Positions 1,877 to 57,231 of a DNA stretch of 64,000 nt are shown here, piece by piece. The DNA comes from an uncultured Methanosarcinaceae archaeon. Lineage in GTDB: Archaea > Halobacteriota > Methanosarcinia > Methanosarcinales > Methanosarcinaceae. The translations under genes were made by a program, and so were the position numbers. The DNA is taken from the NCBI GenBank assembly GCA_963727895.1, contig CAVSHT010000008.1, positions 1 through 64,000 of the forward strand. Reading direction: 5' to 3'. The notes under the pieces were generated by a model. It did no database searches, had not been told where the DNA came from, and saw only the letters and a list, made by a program, of their open reading frames with translations. How positions within the stretch are numbered: the stretch's first letter is position 1; the number at the start of each line of letters is the position of its first letter.

Positions 1877-3229
1877 ATGCAGCAACAGGACGTAATAAAT
1901 AAACAGCTGGCACAAAAAATAGCAGATTTTATCGAACTTGTTATCCCTTATCTGATTGTTGGTTCTAAAAAAGCGGCTGAAGAAGCTTGCAAACAAGTGG
2001 GGGCTGAAGTATGGGAGACTAAAAGAAAGCTATGGGAAAAGTTATGTTCAACAAATTGTGTTGAATTAAAAGAAGCTGCAGCAGACTTGATTATTGCTCC
2101 CTCTAATTCGGATGTAAAGCAATTTTTGATTCAGAATATTTTAAAATTGCTTGAAAACAAACCTGATTTAGTTCAGGAAATTTCATCTTTTATAGATTAT
2201 AAAACTGCACAGGAAATTCTAACCAAAGATAGGTCGGCCAGAATTGTAAAAAAAACCTTAAAACAGGATTTAAATCAAATTTTAATTGATAGAATCCAGG
2301 TACTTGAAGAGTTTAATAGACTACTTGAAGCATTCATAGCGAAGAAGGTCATTTCTCAGGGTCCAGAACTATCAGAAAAGAATGCTGAAAAATCTGCTCC
2401 TGGTCTAAAAATTGGTGAAAAGACTGCTAGTGACTTACGAATAGAGCAAATTGCAGAAATAAAACAAGTCAAAAAAGCCGATTTTACAAAAACTAATGCT
2501 GATAATGTCAATGTTGAAATTCAAAATGAATTTCAAAAGGCACAGAATCTTTTATCGATTATCTCTTGTCTTGAAAAGCCAGAAAAAGAAGAGATTCTAG
2601 AGGAAGCCCTTGATTTTGCTTCCAGGATCCATTATGGAGATTTAAGGTCACAGACACTTTCTCTGGCTGTCCTGTACTTGGACGGGCCAAAAAAAGTCAA
2701 ATATATTGAGAAAGCTCTTGAATCTGCTTCGTATATTCAGGATGAGAACGAAAGAGCCCTTGTTCTTTCCTCCCTTCTTCCTCATCTGAGAGGATCAGGT
2801 AAAGAAGAACTTATTGAAGATCTATTTTGCGTTTCTCACCATCTCAAATATGGAGATACAAAATTTCAGATACTTTCTTCGCTTGTTCCGCATCTTTACG
2901 GATTAAAAAATGAAGTCGCTATTGAAAAGGCTCTTGAACTCATAGACGTCATTTTCTCAGACTATCAGAAATTACAGGCTCTTTCGTTTCTTATTCCATA
3001 CATGAAGGGACAAAGAAAAGAAGAGACCATAGAACAAATTTTTGATTTAGCTTTTGGTCTTAAAGATAAAGATATGAGACCTGAGGCTCTCTCATATATT
3101 CTCCCGCATCTGGATGAAGCTAAAAAAGAAGAACTTCTTAAAAAAGCTCTTGATTTAGCTTCCGGAATCATGTCTGAGTCTCAAAAAACTGAAGCTCTAT
3201 CTTCACTTGCTCCTTATCTTGATGAGTAA
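1877..3229 (+). CDS. Alpha-helical repeat protein (six ~36-aa C-terminal repeats)
   Basis: 450-aa ORF with repeats of the form EKALExASxIxxxxxRxxxLSSLLPHLxxxxKEExI. Confidence 0.8.
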   Translation: MQQQDVINKQLAQKIADFIELVIPYLIVGSKKAAEEACKQVGAEVWETKRKLWEKLCSTNCVELKEAAADLIIAPSNSDVKQFLIQNILKLLENKPDLVQEISSFIDYKTAQEILTKDRSARIVKKTLKQDLNQILIDRIQVLEEFNRLLEAFIAKKVISQGPELSEKNAEKSAPGLKIGEKTASDLRIEQIAEIKQVKKADFTKTNADNVNVEIQNEFQKAQNLLSIISCLEKPEKEEILEEALDFASRIHYGDLRSQTLSLAVLYLDGPKKVKYIEKALESASYIQDENERALVLSSLLPHLRGSGKEELIEDLFCVSHHLKYGDTKFQILSSLVPHLYGLKNEVAIEKALELIDVIFSDYQKLQALSFLIPYMKGQRKEETIEQIFDLAFGLKDKDMRPEALSYILPHLDEAKKEELLKKALDLASGIMSESQKTEALSSLAPYLDE

Positions 3230-3559
3230 TAAAGAGAATTAATAAGCAAAACTTTGACTCCTGAGTTGTTTAATAAATTGTTCTAAATAATTATCCATAA
3301 AAAGAATCTATTAAACTGCAATCCAGGCAATAACACAGATTCTAAGGTGTTAACCTCACCTTTTGCTTTGTGTTATTCCATTTTTTGTCATATATTTCAG
3401 AGGTCTAGAGAGTATAAATTAGTAAATTTTTAAACTTCTATTTCTGTGCCTTTAGATTTATATTGCTTAAACTTTCAATATTTGTCACGTCCTAGAAGTA
3501 AACTTTTCATATCGGTGTGGAGATATAGGCTTTTATATAAAATAAGGGGGCTACAAAAA

Positions 3560-5179: not shown

Positions 5180-6036
5180 GGTTCCGTTGCAAAAAATCTT
5201 AGAATAAGCCTGTAAATCTATGAATAATGAATAAAAGTTAAAATATTCAAAAAGATATGTCAATATTATAGAACTATTCCAAATAATTGATTAATATATT
5301 TAGCTTCATTAAAGCCAGAGTAATTTAAGTTCTTGATTTGTCCTTTTTTAATCATATTCATAGCTTCAATTCCTTTTAAAGTTTTAATGGCTGTATGAAA
5401 AGACTGAAATCCTAACATTGGATTAACTATTCGTTTAATGGATCTATGATCCTGTTCTATAATGTTATTCAAATATTTGATTTGTCGAATGCCTACGTTT
5501 ATAGGTAGTATTTTATCATTTTTCAGTTTATCTATAGCAGGTGGATAAGCTGGATTTTTGTCAACTGTGATTACTCTTGGAATTTGATTATGATTAGAGT
5601 TCAAAGCTTTCTTAAAGAAACGTTTTGCTGCTTTTTTATTTCGTTTTGCACTTAACATGAAATCAATTGTATCTCCATTTGAGTCAACTGCTCGGTAAAA
5701 ATATTTCCATTCACCTTTAACTCTGATATAAGTTTCATCAACTCTCCAAGAGTCGTTTGTTGGTCTTAAATGCCTTCTGACCTTCTTTTCGATTTCAGGT
5801 GAATATTGATGTACCCATCTCATAATGGTTGTATGGTTGACTATTATCCCTCTTTCTGCCATCATTTCCTTTAAATTTCTATAACTAAGTGGGTATTTTA
5901 AGTACCATCTAACATTCAATAAAATAATTTCACCAACAAAGTGCTTCCATTTAAAGGAATTAGATAGCATATCACTATCTTTGATTTCATTTTTATTTTA
6001 ATTATATCCTTAGCAGATATTTTTTGCAACGGAACC
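5180..6036 (-). mobile_element. IS6-family element copy 1 (857 bp), transposase 5266..5970
   Basis: TIR GGTTCCGTTGCAAAAAA at both ends; 234-aa DDE transposase (WRVDETYI, ITVDK, NNIIEQDHR); no target-site duplication (TSD). Confidence 0.97.
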
Positions 6037-8283: not shown

Positions 8284-9140
8284 GGTTCCGTTGCAAAAAA
8301 TATCTGCTAAGGATATAATTAAAATAAAAATGAAATCAAAGATAGTGATATGCTATCTAATTCCTTTAAATGGAAGCACTTTGTAGGTGAAATTATTTTA
8401 TTGAATGTTAGATGGTACTTAAAATACCCACTTAGTTATAGAAATTTAAAGGAAATGATGGCAGAAAGAGGGATAATAGTCAACCATACAACCATTATGA
8501 GATGGGTACATCAATATTCACCTGAAATCGAAAAGAAGGTCAGAAGGCATTTAAGACCAACAAACGACTCTTGGAGAGTTGATGAAACTTATATCAGAGT
8601 TAAAGGTGAATGGAAATATTTTTACCGAGCAGTTGACTCAAATGGAGATACAATTGATTTCATGTTAAGTGCAAAACGAAATAAAAAAGCAGCAAAACGT
8701 TTCTTTAAGAAAGCTTTGAACTCTAATCATAATCAAATTCCAAGAGTAATCACAGTTGACAAAAATCCAGCTTATCCACCTGCTATAGATAAACTGAAAA
8801 ATGATAAAATACTACCTATAAACGTAGGCATTCGACAAATCAAATATTTGAATAACATTATAGAACAGGATCATAGATCCATTAAACGAATAGTTAATCC
8901 AATGTTAGGATTTCAGTCTTTTCATACAGCCATTAAAACTTTAAAAGGAATTGAAGCTATGAATATGATTAAAAAAGGACAAATCAAGAACTTAAATTAC
9001 TCTGGCTTTAATGAAGCTAAATATATTAATCAATTATTTGGAATAGTTCTATAATATTGACATATCTTTTTGAATATTTTAACTTTTATTCATTATTCAT
9101 AGATTTACAGGCTTATTCTAAGATTTTTTGCAACGGAACC
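8284..9140 (+). mobile_element. IS6-family element copy 2, transposase 8350..9054
   Basis: Same TIRs and transposase as copy 1; no TSD. Confidence 0.97.
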
Positions 9141-11644: not shown

Positions 11645-12579
11645 TTAAGTCTTCTCGATGGCAAGAGGCTTGATCTCAGTACCAGGAACTATGGATTCTT
11701 CAGGTCTTCCGAACCAGGGAAGAGAGGCAAGTGCACCTATTACTCCGTTGCCGTCAAGCATGATTTCCACGCCGTTTTCTCTGGCGCATTGCAAAGCCTC
11801 GGATTTCAAGATTCTTTCAGTCCGACAGCGATTGCTGTAATTACATAACCCTTTTGCATAGAAATCCGAAAGAACCACCATTCCGGTTTCGGGCTGAAGC
11901 AGTGTATTTCTTAAGCGCTTTTTTGAAAGCATCTACCAGCCTTGATTTCGCTTTCTCATCCACACAACCGAATTCAAGTAACTGTAGACATGCAGTTCTG
12001 GGTCTTTTCCGGAACAGGGAAAAGCTGGACAAGAGAATGTGAGAGATAAACAGCTTCATGACAGTCCAGTTCCCTTGCAATATTATGAGTAAGAGTCCAG
12101 GTGGCACCTATTTCTTTTGAGTCAGTATCATCTATACCTATAAGGACACGGTCTCTGCGAGGAACTACAAGTTTTCCCCTTGCGCATTTTTCGCCCCCGG
12201 ATTGAGATATATCATAGCGAAGAACTCCATCTGCAAACGCTCTGCAACGAGTTGCGCCCACGCCTCCGCCTCCTAATCCAGCATAGGTGATTTCTACTTC
12301 ATCTCCCTGTACTATTACAGATTCAATACCTGCAGCTGCAATCGAAGGTTTGAGTTCGAGCTTTGAAGTTCCGATTTTCATGAAATAACGGATCATATTT
12401 CCTGTCGAACGGACTTTCAGGACAAGAGGAGCTTTTGCATAATGATAAAGGGACCAACAGGCCCCGCTATAACAATTAGAGTGTTCAATTATCTCTGCAT
12501 ACTCATTTGCTGCATCACAGATAGCATAAATGCCTTTATAAGGCACAGTATAAGGATCTTCCAGGATTACTTCCTTAAT
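11645..12579 (-). pseudogene. mmp11: Methanogenesis marker protein 11, split over three frames
   Basis: PYKGIYA...IIEHSNC, YAGLGGGGVGA, IGIDDTD..GATW, GVIGALASL across ORFs 11974..12546, 11841..12107 and 11645..11932. Confidence 0.8.
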
Positions 12580-12971: not shown

Positions 12972-13550
12972 TTAATCACTATGACTTTTTTTCAGTATCC
13001 ATGCCATATTTTGGCCAAGATTTTTCATATTGTCAATGCCTTCTTGATCCTGTTCTACTTCTCCGATAGCATTCCCGTAAGCCATATTCCAGTAACTTGA
13101 CCCTACCAGAAACATTTCCTTGCTATGTAAAAAATTGTTCAGGGTATTAAAGGCACTTATAGCACCGCCCCGACGAGCAGCAACAACTGAAGCTCCGACT
13201 TTATATTTGAAAAGCCCTCTATTTCCTGCAAGTACCATGCTTGCTCTGTCAATTAAGGCTTTCATTTAAGAAGTCACACCAGCTGAATATACTGGAGACC
13301 CAAGAATAATTCCGTCTGAAGCTACCATTTTTGCAAAACATTCATTAAAAAAATCATCTGTAATAATACATTGCTTATTTTTGTTTTTATGGCAAGTCCA
13401 GCAAGCTTTACATCCTTCTACTTTTTTACCAGATAGTTGAATAAGTTCGGTTTCAATGCCCTCTTTTTCTAGTTCCTCAAATACGGTTTGAATCAGAATT
13501 GCAGTATTGCCGTCTTTTCGTGGGCTTCCATTAATACCTATAACTTTCAT
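12972..13550 (-). pseudogene. Iron-sulfur flavoprotein (Isf/flavodoxin family) with an internal ochre stop
   Basis: GSPRKDGNT, CxxCxxC(5x)C, LGSPVY; in-frame TAA at 13266-13268 then MKALIDR...RRGG. Confidence 0.9.
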
Positions 13551-13773
13551 GTTCTTCAACTACTTTTTCGTATTTCTCAAGATGTTATTTTTACCTGTTA
13601 TTTTATTCTGATTTCCAATTACGGTAAGTTACTATAAGCGACTACTGAAAGTTTTTATGTTAAACTTCTATTGTGAACATCAAATTTTTCAATATTAAGA
13701 GTCTCTAAATTGAGTTTTTCTATATTGAGAGTTCTTAAATTGAGAATTTCTATTTTAAAGTCATAAAGTCATA

Positions 13774-14118
13774 TTATCTTACAAAGCCTTCATCTTTAAG
13801 GCTCACATATCTGCCTTCCCCGATAATAATATGGTCAAGGACGTCAATTCCAAGGAGTTTTCCTCCTTCTACCATTTTCTCAGTGACCATTATATATTCT
13901 CGGCTAGGACTTGGGTCTCCAGAAGGATGGTTATGAACCATGATTACTGATGCCGATGACTCCATAAGAGCGGACTTGAAAACTTCACGTGGATGAACAA
14001 TACTCGCATTCAAGCTACCGATAGATACGACTTCCTCTTCAATGATCTGGTTTTTTGTATCAAGGCAAAGCGTTATAAATTTTTCTTTTTTTGTTCGCGC
14101 ATTTTATGATACATTAAT
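13774..14118 (-). pseudogene. radC: 3' half of radC (JAB domain), interrupted
   Basis: LMYHKMREQK/FITLCLDTKNQII..VSIGSLNASIVHPREVF..HNHPSGD..LDHIII; no 5' half upstream; frameshift in an A-run at ~14090. Confidence 0.9.
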
Positions 14119-14149
14119 GTCTAATTTATATTTATTGGCAATACATCGG

Positions 14150-14965
14150 TTTTTCATAAGAGTTGTGAGGTCATGGATGTTTTCGTACAAGGATCTTTTT
14201 GAAGATGAAACCAAGGCTTCAAATTTGCCCGCCAAGCCCAAAACTTTGAAGGCTAAGGCAAATCATTAACCATCTTTTCTGAACCTGTTAGCACCTTATA
14301 TAGAAAGATAGCCTGTGCTCTCCCAAAAATAGTGTGGAAAAAAAGGAGTGAATGTTGGGGAAATTCCTAGAAACCCCAACGCTCAGAGAGTGCCGCAAGA
14401 AACCGGCGTTCATCAGGAGGAGGTGTGCGCAGAAAATCCAAAAACTCACACACCTCGTTTTGCTAGATACTTAAAGAGGTATAATAGGTATTATGCCATA
14501 CTATCTATAAATATTTATATATAAACATTCGCAGACTCTATACTATTTCGGCAAACCTCTCTAGACTGGCTGGTGGATTTGTCCCCGTGCCTTGCACGTA
14601 TATCTAAATATAAAGAGAGAAACAAAAAAACCAACTATTAAGGCTCGCTGATGGTTTTTAGGTAAAGTCTTGATTTCTTAACAGTCTCACGACCAACCAT
14701 AAGGTCTTTTACAACTCTTTTGAAAAATCTCCTTAAAAATCCAACCCTTCCACCGCTAGCGAAAACAATAATCTTGTCGCCGGCAATCTCCTTCCGGCGA
14801 CAAGAATGAAGTGCTATTATACTTTTGTTTAACTAATAAAAGTCAAAAAAGCGTTTTTGTTTGTCTGTCTGCTTGCTGTCTCTCGCACGTAACTAGTTAA
14901 TTATAAGGAAAAAGGGAAATTTTTCGTTTTTCAAGAGGGGGAGACTTTAGGAAGTTGTCTACCTC
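14150..14965. other. Highly structured non-coding region (candidate large ncRNA or origin)
   Basis: Long-range IR 14150-14166/14711-14727 (16/17) with further nested complementary blocks; local hairpins at 14222-14265, 14354-14380, 14420-14456 and 14772-14805. Confidence 0.5.
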
Positions 14966-15014
14966 ATTTTGTATGTTTTTGTGTTTTGTCTGTTTTGTCT
15001 GCCTTACTTGATTT

Positions 15015-15626
15015 TCATTCAAAATCAATACGGCAATCGTAGGGGTCCATAAAACGCACTCTCACACGCTCCCCCGTTCGGATTCCATACTGCTCCTCAA
15101 CAGGTGTGCAGGCATTGAAGCATTTAAATGATTTACCGTTAATGGTTTTTGTTACATACCCTCCGCCTGTAACCATTTGTATGAAAGAGTAGACAGTTTC
15201 TTCATCTATTGAAAATGGATCTAACTTATGGTTTCCCATTCTTTTAAATAGTATAGGTCGATTCTTTTTCTCTCCCCATTCATGTGCACAAAAAAGTTGG
15301 TTTTCTATGTTGTCTACACAAAACACAATCCTATAAGCTGCTTTGATAACACCTATGGCTGTTGCGTCCTGTTTTTCGTTTTCGTTGAGTTCATGTCCCT
15401 GCCCATCACATATGTCTAAGTACTTCTCATACTCGGCGTCTGCTATTGCAACATTTATCTCCTCTTTGAGGATCCTGTTATACTCTGATTCCTTCAAACC
15501 ATATGCTTTAATTATCTTTTTTAAGTTTTCTTTCCTGCTAAGATCTATGCGTGAAAATTCGGGAAACTCTTTTTTAATCTCCTCATACGACCTCAAATCC
15601 CAGTTGAATTGTCTCATTTCCTTCAC
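15015..15626 (-). CDS. Hypothetical protein (~200 aa), last gene of the element operon
   Basis: Clean ORF with globular composition and AAGGTGAAGGA RBS-like sequence; no family recognised. Confidence 0.8.
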   Translation of the reverse strand: MKEMRQFNWDLRSYEEIKKEFPEFSRIDLSRKENLKKIIKAYGLKESEYNRILKEEINVAIADAEYEKYLDICDGQGHELNENEKQDATAIGVIKAAYRIVFCVDNIENQLFCAHEWGEKKNRPILFKRMGNHKLDPFSIDEETVYSFIQMVTGGGYVTKTINGKSFKCFNACTPVEEQYGIRTGERVRVRFMDPYDCRIDFE

Positions 15627-18416: not shown

Positions 18417-19273
18417 GGTTCCGTTGCAAAAAATCTTAGAATAAGCCTGTAAATCTATGAATAATGAATAAAAGTTAAAATATTCAAAAAGATATGTCAA
18501 TATTATAGAACTATTCCAAATAATTGATTAATATATTTAGCTTCATTAAAGCCAGAGTAATTTAAGTTCTTGATTTGTCCTTTTTTAATCATATTCATCG
18601 CTTCAATTCCTTTTAAAGTTTTAATGGCTGTATGAAAAGACTGAAATCCTAACATTGGATTAACTATTCGTTTAATGGATCTATGATCCTGTTCTATAAT
18701 GTTATTCAAATATTTGATTTGTCGAATGCCTACGTTTATAGGTAGTATTTTATCATTTTTCAGTTTATCTATAGCAGGTGGATAAGCTGGATTTTTGTCA
18801 ACTGTGATTACTCTTGGAATTTGATTATGATTAGAGTTCAAAGCTTTTTTGAAGAATCTGTTCGCTGTTTTTTTATTTCGTTTTGCACTTAACATGAAAT
18901 CAATTGTATCTCCATTTGAGTCAACTGCTCGGTAAAAATATTTCCATTCACCTTTAACTCTGATATAAGTTTCATCAACTCTCCAAGAGTCGTTTGTTGG
19001 TCTTAAATGCCTTCTGACCTTCTTTTCGATTTCAGGTGAATATTGATGTACCCATCTCATAATGGTTGTATGGTTGACTATTATCCCTCTTTCTGCCATC
19101 ATTTCCTTTAAACTTCTATAACTAAGTGGGTATTTTAAGTACCATCTAACATTCAATAAAATAATTTCACCTACAAAGTGCTTCCATTTAAAGGAATTAG
19201 ATAGCATATCACTATCTTTGATTTCATTTTTATTTTAATTATATCCTTAGCAGATATTTTTTGCAACGGAACC
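18417..19273 (-). mobile_element. IS6-family element copy 3, transposase 18503..19207
   Basis: TIRs and intact transposase; no TSD. Confidence 0.97.
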
Positions 19274-22299: not shown

Positions 22300-22752
22300 A
22301 TGTCAAGCAAGACAACATTCGAAATAGAAGACAAGTGTCTTCCTCCTTTCTTCGTAAAGCAGAAAGTCTCTATTGAAAAAGGAGAAGGAATTTATGTATG
22401 GGACGAAGAAGGGAAAAAGTATATTGATTTCACAGCAGGTTGGGGTGTGACATGTATTGGTCATGCAAACCCGGTAATCACTGATGCTCTTATTGATCAG
22501 GGAAGAAAGATAATCCAAAATCCCAATTCAGGACTTACATATTCTCCTGCACGTGCACGTCTATTGTCCTTGCTGACAGAAATTCTGCCTTCTAATCTTA
22601 CAAGAGTATTTTTCACAAATAGTGGAGCTGAAGCAAACGATGCTGCCATTAAACTTGCTCGAAAAGTAACAGGCAGACCTGATATCATTTCTATGGATCA
22701 AAGTTTTCATGGGCGTACTATCAGTACGACATCGGCTACAGGCCAGGCAAAG
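22300..22752 (+). pseudogene. Class III PLP aminotransferase (ArgD-like), 3'-truncated by IS6
   Basis: GEGIYVWD..GKKYIDF..G, FFTNSGAEAND, SFHGRT; cut at 22753 before the PLP-binding lysine. Confidence 0.9.
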
Positions 22753-23609
22753 GGTTCCGTTGCAAAAAATATCTGCTAAGGATATAATTAAAATAAAAAT
22801 GAAATCAAAGATAGTGATATGCTATCTAATTCCTTTAAATGGAAGCACTTTGTAGGTGAAATTATTTTATTGAATGTTAGATGGTACTTAAAATACCCAC
22901 TTAGTTATAGAAATTTAAAGGAAATGATGGCAGAAAGAGGGATAATAGTCAACCATACAACCATTATGAGATGGGTACATCAATATTCACCTGAAATCGA
23001 AAAGAAGGTCAGAAGGCATTTAAGACCAACAAACGACTCTTGGAGAGTTGATGAAACTTATATCAGAGTTAAAGGTGAATGGAAATATTTTTACCGAGCA
23101 GTTGACTCAAATGGAGATACAATTGATTTCATGTTAAGTGCAAAACGAAATAAAAAAACAGCGAACAGATTCTTCAAAAAAGCTTTGAACTCTAATCATA
23201 ATCAAATTCCAAGAGTAATCACAGTTGACAAAAATCCAGCTTATCCACCTGCTATAGATAAACTGAAAAATGATAAAATACTACCTATAAACGTAGGCAT
23301 TCGACAAATCAAATATTTGAATAACATTATAGAACAGGATCATAGATCCATTAAACGAATAGTTAATCCAATGTTAGGATTTCAGTCTTTTCATACAGCC
23401 ATTAAAACTTTAAAAGGAATTGAAGCGATGAATATGATTAAAAAAGGACAAATCAAGAACTTAAATTACTCTGGCTTTAATGAAGCTAAATATATTAATC
23501 AATTATTTGGAATAGTTCTATAATATTGACATATCTTTTTGAATATTTTAACTTTTATTCATTATTCATAGATTTACAGGCTTATTCTAAGATTTTTTGC
23601 AACGGAACC
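22753..23609 (+). mobile_element. IS6-family element copy 4, transposase 22819..23523
   Basis: TIRs and intact transposase; no TSD. Confidence 0.97.
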
Positions 23610-56447: not shown

Positions 56448-56491
56448 GATCAAAAAATCTCTTTAAACAGAAAATGAGTTGTTAAAAATAT

Positions 56492-57231
56492 GGCATTGGT
56501 ACACAAAAATAGATATATATGCTTATAACATATATTTCTTCATGAACTGCCCAAAATGTAATAGTTCCAGTCACAAAAATAATGGTATAGTTGGCGGGCG
56601 TCAACGCTACAAATGCTCTGATTGTGGATATAACTATACAGTAGAGCTAAAATCAACTGCTTTTTCCGCCTCTGTTAAAAAACAGGCTTTACAACTTTAC
56701 CTTGAAGGATTGGGCTTTCGTTCAATAGGAAGAGTTTTAGGGGTGAGTCATGTTTCTGTCCAAAAATGGATCAAGAAATTTGGTCAAGAGTGAGAGAACC
56801 TAAAAAGTGAAAGTGAGATATCTATTGTTGAAATGGATGAGATGCACACTTACATCGGTAACAAAAAAAAATATTGCTGGATCTGGATTGCTGTTGATAG
56901 AGTTGGGAAAAAGTTCATCAACTGCTCTTTTGGTAGCAGAGGAACAGAAACTGGAAAACTACTCTGGGAAAAATTGAAGAAAAAAGAGATTGGAGAAGTG
57001 ATGACAGATCACTGGAGAGCATATGCAGAGTTTATTCCTGAAACGATTCATACTCAATCAAAAGCAGAAACATTTACAGTTGAGGGATATAACAGCATAT
57101 TGAGGCACTTTTTGGCAAGGTTAAGAAGAAAGACAAAGTGTTATAAAAAAGTCTTGAAATGCTAAAGTACTCGGTTATTCTATTGATGAAATACAGAAAT
57201 AAAGAACTAGATATATTTAAGTAACAATGCC
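56492..57231 (+). mobile_element. IS1-family element, A9/TGA variant
   Basis: IS1 ends; 8-bp TSD AAAAATAT; TGA at 56791; A9 run. Confidence 0.95.

Follow-up and report, generated by a model that had tools for sequence, protein, structure and literature searches.

The locus considered here raises the question of whether a long non-coding fold-back is a functional unit in its entirety, or whether something else within it is maintained by selection. It lies at positions 14150-14727 of a 64,000-nucleotide (nt) stretch of DNA from an uncultured Methanosarcinaceae archaeon (assembly GCA_963727895.1, contig CAVSHT010000008.1), and this whole stretch is referred to below as the window. The first-pass annotation described about 580 nt of nested complementary blocks with side hairpins, and interpreted them as a large structured RNA, or as a single-strand DNA origin or packaging signal, with a decayed inverted duplication as the fallback. 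Judging from comparisons of sequence copies, the stretch belongs to a lineage-specific family of non-coding repeats about 0.75 kb long, of which it is one detached and locally rearranged copy, and the 580-nt fold-back is an accident of this one rearranged copy. Selection appears to keep a block resembling the B recognition element and TATA box (BRE/TATA), a GGAGG/CCUCC motif, three to four short hairpins (P_A, P_C, P_B and P_D) and U-tracts. Because the copies share a promoter-like center and a few small hairpins, it is more likely that the repeat makes small RNAs (sRNAs) than one large folded RNA.

The complementarity of the window copy is real. Positions 14150-14166 and 14711-14727 are complementary at 16 of 17 positions, as the first-pass annotation stated, and the complementarity extends further, to an imperfect 41/43-nt inverted repeat (14147-14187 versus 14688-14730). 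The duplex of its two arms has an energy of -31.5 kcal/mol, compared to -18.1 +/- 2.9 kcal/mol for shuffled right arms, with none of 300 shuffles as good; it should be noted that a 17-mer inverted repeat with no more than one mismatch occurs in 6 of 200 mononucleotide shuffles of 13900-15000. The inner blocks proposed earlier can be read in the sequence in nested order: GAAACCAAGGCTT (14207-14219) with AAGTCTTGATTTC (14666-14678), AACCATC (14268-14274) with GATGGTT (14650-14656), TTATAT/AGATA/GTGC (14296-14318) with 14594-14613, and AATAGGTAT (14483-14491) with ATACTATT (14540-14547). One partner has to be corrected, since AACCTCT (14554-14560) faces AGAGGTA in the sequence, and not AGAGGTT. 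The perfect palindrome at the center (14506-14519) and the three side hairpins, corresponding to P_A, P_C and P_D, are also present. Folding of 14150-14727 yielded -155.8 kcal/mol for the plus strand (z = -4.60) and -168.1 kcal/mol for the minus strand (z = -4.47), while 14147-14730 folded as DNA had z = -2.92; in each of these cases, 0 of 100 shuffles were as good. The stretch is also non-coding, as had been claimed: its open reading frames (ORFs) do not exceed 75 aa, none of them is conserved among the copies of the repeat, and the indels between copies are not in multiples of three. A 20-codon minus-strand ORF in the right block was rejected as coding, and it is not kept in one of the copies (C4c).

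Searching the whole genome with blastn and with a profile, we detected seven diverged copies of the core, five full and two partial (labeled by contig, with C8 denoting the window copy); distant copies are 68-87% identical over the aligned pieces. In five of the seven copies, the core is located about 235 nt downstream of an ORF of about 230 aa encoding a winged-helix protein, and the full form of the repeat sits between this gene and a convergent helix-turn-helix (HTH) gene. The convergent HTH ORF follows three copies, and the units have insertion sequence (IS) elements on their flanks. Two copies, that of the window and C5, are solo cores that lack the winged-helix gene and lie in two unrelated contexts. 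The repeat is confined to this lineage: blastn of the window copy against 60 relatives produced matches of 24-39 nt at most, which is the level of chance, whereas blastn of the C4c copy against 58 genomes of the genus produced matches of no more than 65 nt, with the core found in none of these 58 other species. Collections of phages and plasmids contained no match to the core. An exact-pattern scan returned 15 matches in genome contigs, all of them bacterial records, and 8 in viral contigs; nhmmer found the core in 0 of 95 retrieved loci (best E = 0.015), the 8 viral-contig loci lying outside this check.

The fold-back is not a property of this family. In the same alignment columns of C5, C4c, C3b and C3a, the arm duplex has an energy of -9.7 to -12.1 kcal/mol, no better than shuffles, and no further copy of the arms was found elsewhere in the genome. 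A contig from the metagenome run X1 is about 95% identical to the window over 14204-14494 and unlike it to the left of 14204, and the radC-bearing contigs of X1, X3 and X5 diverge from the window at 14092-14116; therefore, the junction of radC, arm and core is particular to this genome. The long-range stems would derive from the 41/43-nt inverted repeat and from other complementarity that arose solely in the window copy, at the radC junction. The cores of two paralogs were compared to shuffles on both strands, and neither shows excess stability (z = +0.19 and -0.30 for C5; z = -0.42 and -0.71 for C4c). When the minimum free energy structure of the window copy is projected on the seven-copy alignment, 63.1% of the cells pair, compared to 33-51% with slid partners, although this structure is derived from one of the seven aligned sequences, which is itself counted in the 63.1%. 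The local helices hold in this projection (P_A, 87.8% of cells; P_C, 90.5%; inner P_D, 86.7%; also a small hairpin at columns 681-693), whereas pairing in the outer nested helices reaches 45-73% of cells, compared with the same slid controls. A decayed inverted duplication fits the terminal 41/43 nt; over the whole length, it is unsupported, because in none of the five copies does the left half resemble an inverted version of the right half (semi-global scores of the left half versus the reverse complement of the right half, z = -0.19 to -1.56, no better than shuffles).

We consider it very improbable that the stretch is a single structured RNA of about 580 nt with functional nested long-range helices. 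The folding scores of the window copy are what such an RNA would have, and stability persists even without the terminal arms (z = -2.94 and -2.37); moreover, one long-range helix of 8 bp (columns 362-370 with 710-719, i.e., window positions ~14315-14323 with 14608-14617) is compatible with the other copies, at 86.5% of cells paired and with no double change, and the lineage of C4c, C3a and C3b has a different 14-bp long-range pairing. Set against this are the lack of excess stability in the two paralogs, the poorly paired outer helices, and a closing stem that is found in the window copy only and is absent from the 95% relative. An internal promoter-like box, together with U7/U5 or T5 tracts on both strands, is also not expected of one continuous RNA. 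No Rfam family matches the stretch: a search with Rfam 15 covariance models (including ROOL, GOLLD, OLE, HEARO, group II intron, RNase P and SRP) gave 0 matches at the gathering score in the 64-kb window, six sub-threshold matches in 13900-15100 that are noise (the best scoring 21.1 bits against a gathering score of 48), and 0 matches in three loci carrying other repeat copies. What stood of the proposed large RNA is its short local hairpins.

The 41/43-nt arms (14147-14730) could also be viewed as terminal inverted repeats bounding a mobile element, of the foldback type or resembling a miniature inverted-repeat transposable element. The arms have a transposon-like length and surround a non-coding unit of about 580 bp, the unit is multi-copy in an IS-rich genome, and the two solo copies lie in contexts unrelated to each other, where one of them interrupts a gene. 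Nevertheless, the arms are present in one of the five full copies tested and do not recur in the genome, the right arm falls within conserved family sequence that continues to ~14923, and no direct repeat flanking the arms can be read in the window sequence. The similarity among copies is 68-95%; apart from the lineage of C4c, C3a and C3b, no two of them are nearly identical. We regard a mobile element of this kind as extremely unlikely.

The features that are retained by the copies lie inside the core (Table 1). An AAA-NN-T-rich TATA block is present on the minus strand at one alignment column in all seven copies. The box A consensus of methanogens is AAANNTTTATATA, and the minus-strand block fits it; the plus-strand box at 14509-14521 is the sole exact match to AAANNTTTATATA in the window. 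GGAGG, which reads CCUCC on the minus strand, is located between hairpins. P_A keeps 6-8 bp across the seven copies, with one double change from C-G to U-A, and one pair of P_C is G-C in two copies, A-U in three and U-A in one. The stems of P_D are GAGGTGTG/CACACCTC in the window copy, GAGTGCAA/TTGCACTC in C4b and TGCAGGAG/CTCCTGCA in the remaining copies. Two U-tracts follow P_C on the minus strand in all six copies that have the region. The X1 variants at two positions improve pairing: 14382 C>T extends the P_C stem, turning a U.G wobble on the minus strand into a Watson-Crick pair and a mismatch on the plus strand into a pair, and 14428 C>T replaces C.A (plus) or G.U (minus) in P_D with a Watson-Crick pair. 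The hairpin stems differ in sequence among the copies, and therefore selection for structure fits, whereas a shared protein-binding site does not. These results suggest that secondary structure is likely to be selected, as short local hairpins only. In the seven-copy alignment, P_A, P_C and P_D show a few double changes and the outer helices are poorly kept; the covariation statistics are weak because the family has only about five independent lineages.

Table 1. Positions of the repeat copies, of features in and beside the window copy, and of associated genes. Positions without a contig label are those of the window.
Feature	Position	Strand	Description
Window copy (C8)	14194-14923	+	nhmmer with copy profile, E = 1e-147; core of ~560 nt and right-hand module
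Other full copies	C5:339576-340330; C4:36855-36111; C3:71417-72162; C3:56846-56099		blastn, profile search
Partial copies	C4:4597-4030; C4:81609-81948		blastn, profile search
Left arm of inverted repeat	14147-14187		Left of the conserved core; window copy only
Right arm of inverted repeat	14688-14730		Overlaps block 14712-14769, which is 85-87% identical to three other copies
P_A	14223-14263	-	ATTTGCC (14223-14229) with GGCAAAT (14257-14263); conserved loop AGCC..AAACT
U-tracts 3' of P_C	14325-14344	-	U7 (14344-14338) and U5 (14329-14325), A7 (14338-14344) and A5 (14325-14329) on the plus strand; predicted archaeal terminator
P_C	14354-14380	-	GTTGGGG with CCCCAAC
P_B	14389-14410	-	AGTGCCG with CGGCGTT; weak, varies among copies
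GGAGGAGG	14416-14423		GGAGG invariant in 7/7 copies (alignment columns G317 G318 A319 G320 G321)
P_D	14420-14456		Beside GGAGG; three unrelated stem sequences pair at the same place
Central A/T block	14506-14530		Holds palindrome TATAAATATTTATA; BRE/TATA-like boxes on both strands; putative promoter
BRE/TATA-like box	14509-14521	+	AAATATTTATATA
BRE/TATA-like box	14530 to 14518	-	GAATGTTTATATA
Predicted small RNA	14338-14499	-	Start near 14496-14499; P_D, CCUCC, P_B, P_C, U7; ~160 nt
Perfect 12-bp G+C-rich hairpin	14772-14805		TCTTGTCGCCGG ... CCGGCGACAAGA; insertion confined to the window copy, absent from the other aligned copies
GTCTG module (~150 nt), diverged copy	14855-15010	+	Ends the repeat unit
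RadC-like JAB gene, left neighbor	13774-14102	-	Pfam RadC, 3.6e-42; TATA-like box at 14121-14139
Winged-helix genes, C4	37084-37782(-); 4826-5530(-); 80701-81384(+); 20305-20457		The last is a fragment
Winged-helix genes, C3	70482-71189(+); 57074-57757(-); 43681-44355(-)		
Winged-helix genes, C14	37084-37767(+); 4182-4772(-)		

The same features have to be weighed against the alternative that the core is a non-functional remnant. In this view, a cassette of winged-helix gene, spacer and HTH gene was duplicated and dispersed through IS-mediated rearrangement, and the core is simply the spacer of that cassette. Its hairpins and T-runs would then be ordinary terminators of convergent genes, or chance, and the window copy would be a decaying fragment with a fold-back from a small inverted duplication. 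The genome is indeed crowded with IS6 and IS1 elements, has many split genes, and carries IS elements on the flanks of the copies. The core is no better conserved than the neighboring gene (~68-71% between distant copies), the z-score of the whole core is close to zero in two paralogs, and the X1 variants 14299 T>G and 14604 C>A disrupt long-range pairs. In addition, a T-run follows P_A on the plus strand and U-runs follow P_C on the minus strand, as facing terminators would show. Conversely, mere decay does not account for the 8-10 bp stem that P_D retains at one position through three unrelated sequences, for the double changes in P_C that preserve pairing, or for the GGAGG and TATA blocks that are invariant or nearly so in seven of seven copies despite variable flanks. 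The solo copies C8 and C5, in their unrelated contexts, retain the pairing of P_C and P_D, GGAGG and the TATA block. We consider a remnant unlikely, while giving this explanation real weight.

The reading that we tentatively prefer, and which we hold to be quite possible, is that the core is a promoter-bearing small-RNA locus, probably making a minus-strand RNA of about 160 nt; its transcription, strand, ends and function are all deduced from the arrangement of the conserved features. The conserved TATA block in the middle, together with internal U-tracts on both strands, favors several short transcripts. The predicted start site was derived from the position of the minus-strand TATA and the spacing in a Methanosarcinaceae species, where, according to an extract of PMC5378194, BRE/TATA lies about 19-22 nt from the start site. 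The same extract describes many intergenic regions of Methanosarcinaceae that contain two or more sRNAs, some of them mutually antisense, and mentions conserved multi-copy sRNAs. For archaeal termination, an extract of PMC8716108 links terminator U-tracts to efficacy. Under this small-RNA model, the central promoter would fire leftwards and produce a minus-strand RNA from about 14497 to 14338, with a 5' leader followed by P_D, a single-stranded CCUCCU, P_B, P_C and a U7 stop. Transcription might also continue to P_A near 14195, the limit of homology with the other copies, and on the plus strand the central A/T block might give rise to a divergent transcript. Ribosome-binding (Shine-Dalgarno) sites are possible partners of the exposed CCUCC, a predicted and generic pairing; for example, the site of the winged-helix gene itself reads UCAGGAGG.

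The minus strand is favored because the canonical box, the hairpins and the U-tracts align in that direction. The domain of P_D, P_B and P_C (135-140 nt) in five copies has z-scores of -2.08, -1.96, -2.91, -2.65 and -0.56 on the minus strand and of -3.19, -0.80, -2.91, -0.27 and -0.86 on the plus strand, i.e., it beats shuffles in four of five copies on the minus strand versus two of five on the plus strand. For P_A, the minus strand gives the clearly more stable hairpin in five of seven copies, a nearly equal one in C4a and a slightly less stable one in C5, and the stability of P_C leans to the minus strand as well. Several observations weigh against the small-RNA model or against this choice of strand. 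P_D is more stable on the plus strand in five of seven copies, and by RNAalifold the plus strand exceeds the minus strand both in pairs (24 versus 17) and in compensated pairs (6 versus 2); because these stability and RNAalifold signals conflict, the choice of the minus strand is tentative. A search of sequencing runs turned up no RNA run that contains the locus, and the four DNA runs compared yielded contig variants only. TATA-like motifs with no more than one mismatch are not enriched in the A/T-rich window (14 observed versus 9.2 expected), and the X1 variants 14423 G>T and 14456 C>G disrupt two pairs of P_D. The small number of independent lineages and the partial circularity of the projected structure count on the same side, and the model leaves unexplained the stability of the window-copy core without its arms.

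The association with the winged-helix gene brings in a further alternative, in which the core acts as DNA: the replication origin or protein-binding region of an integrated plasmid-like or integrase-borne element, or a single-strand origin or packaging signal, with the A/T center as the unwinding site and the winged-helix protein as initiator or regulator. The ~230-aa winged-helix ORF has eight copies and one fragment in the genome, 75-90% alike. The protein has no match in Pfam, NCBIfam, PHROGs or ESM Atlas; closer relatives at 46-90% identity exist in databases, and all 44 database relatives are unnamed or hypothetical. In its model (pLDDT 75.8), a helical N-terminal part precedes a generic winged helix at the C-terminus, and fold comparison yields generic similarity (VIA Z 5-7.8), with all Foldseek matches at E of at least 0.09. 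The 235-nt spacer between gene and core contains a TATA-like box and three half-sites, GTTAC/GTCAC/GTTAC; these half-sites and the winged-helix gene are located upstream of the core in five copies and not in the window copy. Distant relatives of the protein (27-45% identity) occur in 6 of 58 genomes of the genus and in numerous metagenome contigs from wetland or peat, some of which carry two of them. Downstream of these relatives come a conserved region of about 270 nt, similar to the spacer and with GTAAC/GTTACGG repeats, and about 1 kb with few ORFs; no core was detected there. The winged-helix protein led to 80 metagenome loci; a single one of them is a close relative, on a contig that breaks off ahead of the core. 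One of the distant homologues is divergent from an Orc1/Cdc6 gene (Cdc6_lid 2.9e-17, Cdc6_C 9.2e-15) on its metagenome contig (1139-2500, minus strand, and 2944-3480, plus strand), the two being 440 nt apart.

An action at the DNA level is compatible with the winged-helix gene and its GTTAC/GTCAC repeats adjoining five copies, with the weak fold similarity to winged-helix domains that include the initiators Pi, RepE and Cdt1 (Foldseek E 0.1-0.5), with the Orc1/Cdc6 neighbor of the one distant homologue, and with the z-score of the DNA fold. A further point is the truncated PNPOx gene next to the C5 copy: the 13 bp at which the two adjoin are found again near a gene for a tyrosine integrase. 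On the other hand, neither the winged-helix gene nor its repeats are present at the window copy, direct repeats within the core form families of two copies at most, and the stem sequences differ between copies, unlike a shared protein-binding site. The window ORFs that were scanned include no Rep, relaxase, capsid, terminase or phage gene, the winged-helix protein has no relatives in viral contigs, and its distant homologues are located among chromosomal surface-protein genes. The single-strand origin or packaging signal of the first-pass annotation is unsupported in this region of an archaeal chromosome, which has no Rep, relaxase or phage genes nearby, and a DNA-level role in general seems improbable to us. 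Equally doubtful, in our estimate, is a combined reading in which the core is a new lineage-specific family of structured archaeal RNA that forms, with the 230-aa winged-helix protein, a two-part module of an integrating or IS-mobilized element. Such an RNA might serve in copy control or maintenance, or it might act as an anti-Shine-Dalgarno regulator expressed from a bidirectional promoter, and the window copy would be a solo RNA gene acting in trans.

The mobile-element context of the C5 copy can be described further. This solo copy starts about 55 nt past the break of a PNPOx-family gene (C5:339405-339527), which is intact at 135 aa in a relative and is truncated at residue 35 beside the C5 copy. 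The break carries 13 bp (CCAATAGGCAGGT) that are repeated, as CCAATAAGCATGT, next to the tyrosine integrase gene (PF00589, 9.7e-14; C5:202901-204339 region), 135 kb away, which adjoins a 3' part of PNPOx with 71% identity. The two sites may be the ends of an integrated element that were later separated by rearrangement; the two PNPOx halves are not arranged as a simple insertion, and we treat the arrangement as a lead only. The first-pass annotation further placed the stretch directly downstream of an orphan operon and beside an att junction, a context that could not be confirmed from the window: among the window ORFs scanned, no integrase was found. The tRNA-like attachment site suggested at 14730-14770 was rejected, as ARAGORN found no tRNA there or elsewhere in the window.

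The RadC-like gene to the left of the repeat is frameshifted in an A/T homopolymer just past its ATG (14086-14094). The X1 and X3 contigs have an extra T behind 14085, which would keep the frame open, and the frameshift is either that of a real pseudogene or a homopolymer assembly error. The right neighbor is an orphan ORF of 203 aa, whose family consists of two proteins. Methanogenesis marker protein 11 (TIGR03280, E = 2.9e-87) is present at 11645-12546 on the minus strand as a split ORF (190 aa and 95 aa), in keeping with a methanogenic archaeal host, and the window further contains thermosome, DUF2114, DUF2119 and PKD/NosD surface-protein genes, with several IS6 and IS1 transposases among them. 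An FMN reductase at 12972-13559 (minus strand) is split into two ORFs of 97 aa, and a class-III aminotransferase at 22300-22779 is interrupted by an IS6 copy. Such split genes point to widespread pseudogenes or frameshift errors in this IS-rich genome, which is 84% complete. Transposase genes of IS6 (IS240-type) are intact at 5266-5970, 8350-9054, 18503-19207 and 22819-23523 of the window. An IS1-like sequence of about 520 nt has more than 40 copies, 89-95% identical, on the single 497-kb contig C5 (e.g., 201501-202031), and is also found at 56479-57165 of the window. The abundance of the IS1-like and IS6 sequences is a strong IS expansion.

Several further observations concern the right-hand part of the repeat. 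On the minus strand, a short U-run follows the hairpin at 14772-14805, and in the X1 variant the left arm of this hairpin is one base longer and its right arm one base shorter. The GTCTG module occurs alone six times in the genome (C14:36299-36445, C14:74498-74641, C5:363948-364094, C5:181571-181714, C3:28100-28244 and C5:341008-341111); it contains GTCTGTCTGTCTG, the palindrome AGACGCATGTCT, CAGACAC, CTGTCTGC and TATA-like runs, and could be an operator/promoter module or a small mobile unit. In C5, C4a, C4c, C3a and C3b, a short hydrophobic ORF (MFLMVTKLLVS..., 14-20 codons; alignment columns ~545-600) follows a Shine-Dalgarno-like site, GAGGTGAT; it is absent from the window copy and C4b, and the divergence is too low to judge whether it is coding.

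The notable part of this locus is, in our view, a lineage-specific, apparently promoter-bearing non-coding repeat with three or four conserved hairpins, which we put forward as a hypothetical sRNA gene. If the predicted transcripts are real, the RNA repertoire of Methanosarcina-type methanogens, about which little is known, would gain a multi-copy small-RNA family tied to an uncharacterized family of winged-helix proteins, and anti-Shine-Dalgarno regulation in archaea could be tested at a concrete locus. If transcripts are absent, the locus would instead be a caution that a striking folding z-score of a single sequence can stem from a copy-specific inverted repeat, and vanish once paralogs are compared.

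Known systems resemble the repeat in different respects. ROOL, GOLLD, OLE and HEARO are large ornate non-coding RNAs of bacteria that are represented in Rfam. They share with the window copy a length of about 0.6 kb, the lack of an ORF, a multi-hairpin look and an association with mobile DNA; the differences are the archaeal host, a global fold that is not kept among paralogs, and a best sub-threshold Rfam match to an unrelated vertebrate long non-coding RNA. Single-strand origins and promoters of rolling-circle plasmids and conjugative elements (sso, ssi, Frpo) form another group for comparison, and radC-like genes are often located in leading regions. The long imperfect non-coding fold-back beside a radC-like gene is similar, whereas the window ORFs include no Rep, relaxase or conjugation genes, the setting is an archaeal chromosome, and the fold-back is present in one of seven copies. 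Modules of a Rep protein and an origin in iteron plasmids (RepE, Pi) are reminiscent of the five copies that combine a winged-helix protein of about 230 aa, short repeats and an A/T-rich block; unlike these modules, the fold matches are not significant, the winged helix is generic, the core contains no iterons, and the window copy has no such gene. The intergenic sRNA genes of Methanosarcinaceae belong to the same archaeal family as the repeat. The repeat differs from them in being known from its sequence only, in having no Rfam match, in its tie to an unannotated winged-helix gene, and in its confinement to one species among the 59 genomes of the genus searched. As far as the extract of PMC5378194 describes the sRNA genes of Methanosarcina mazei and Methanolobus psychrophilus, the repeat is like them in its intergenic site, in a BRE/TATA-like block at the expected distance from the predicted start, in its short hairpins and U-tract ends, and in the presence of paralogous copies.

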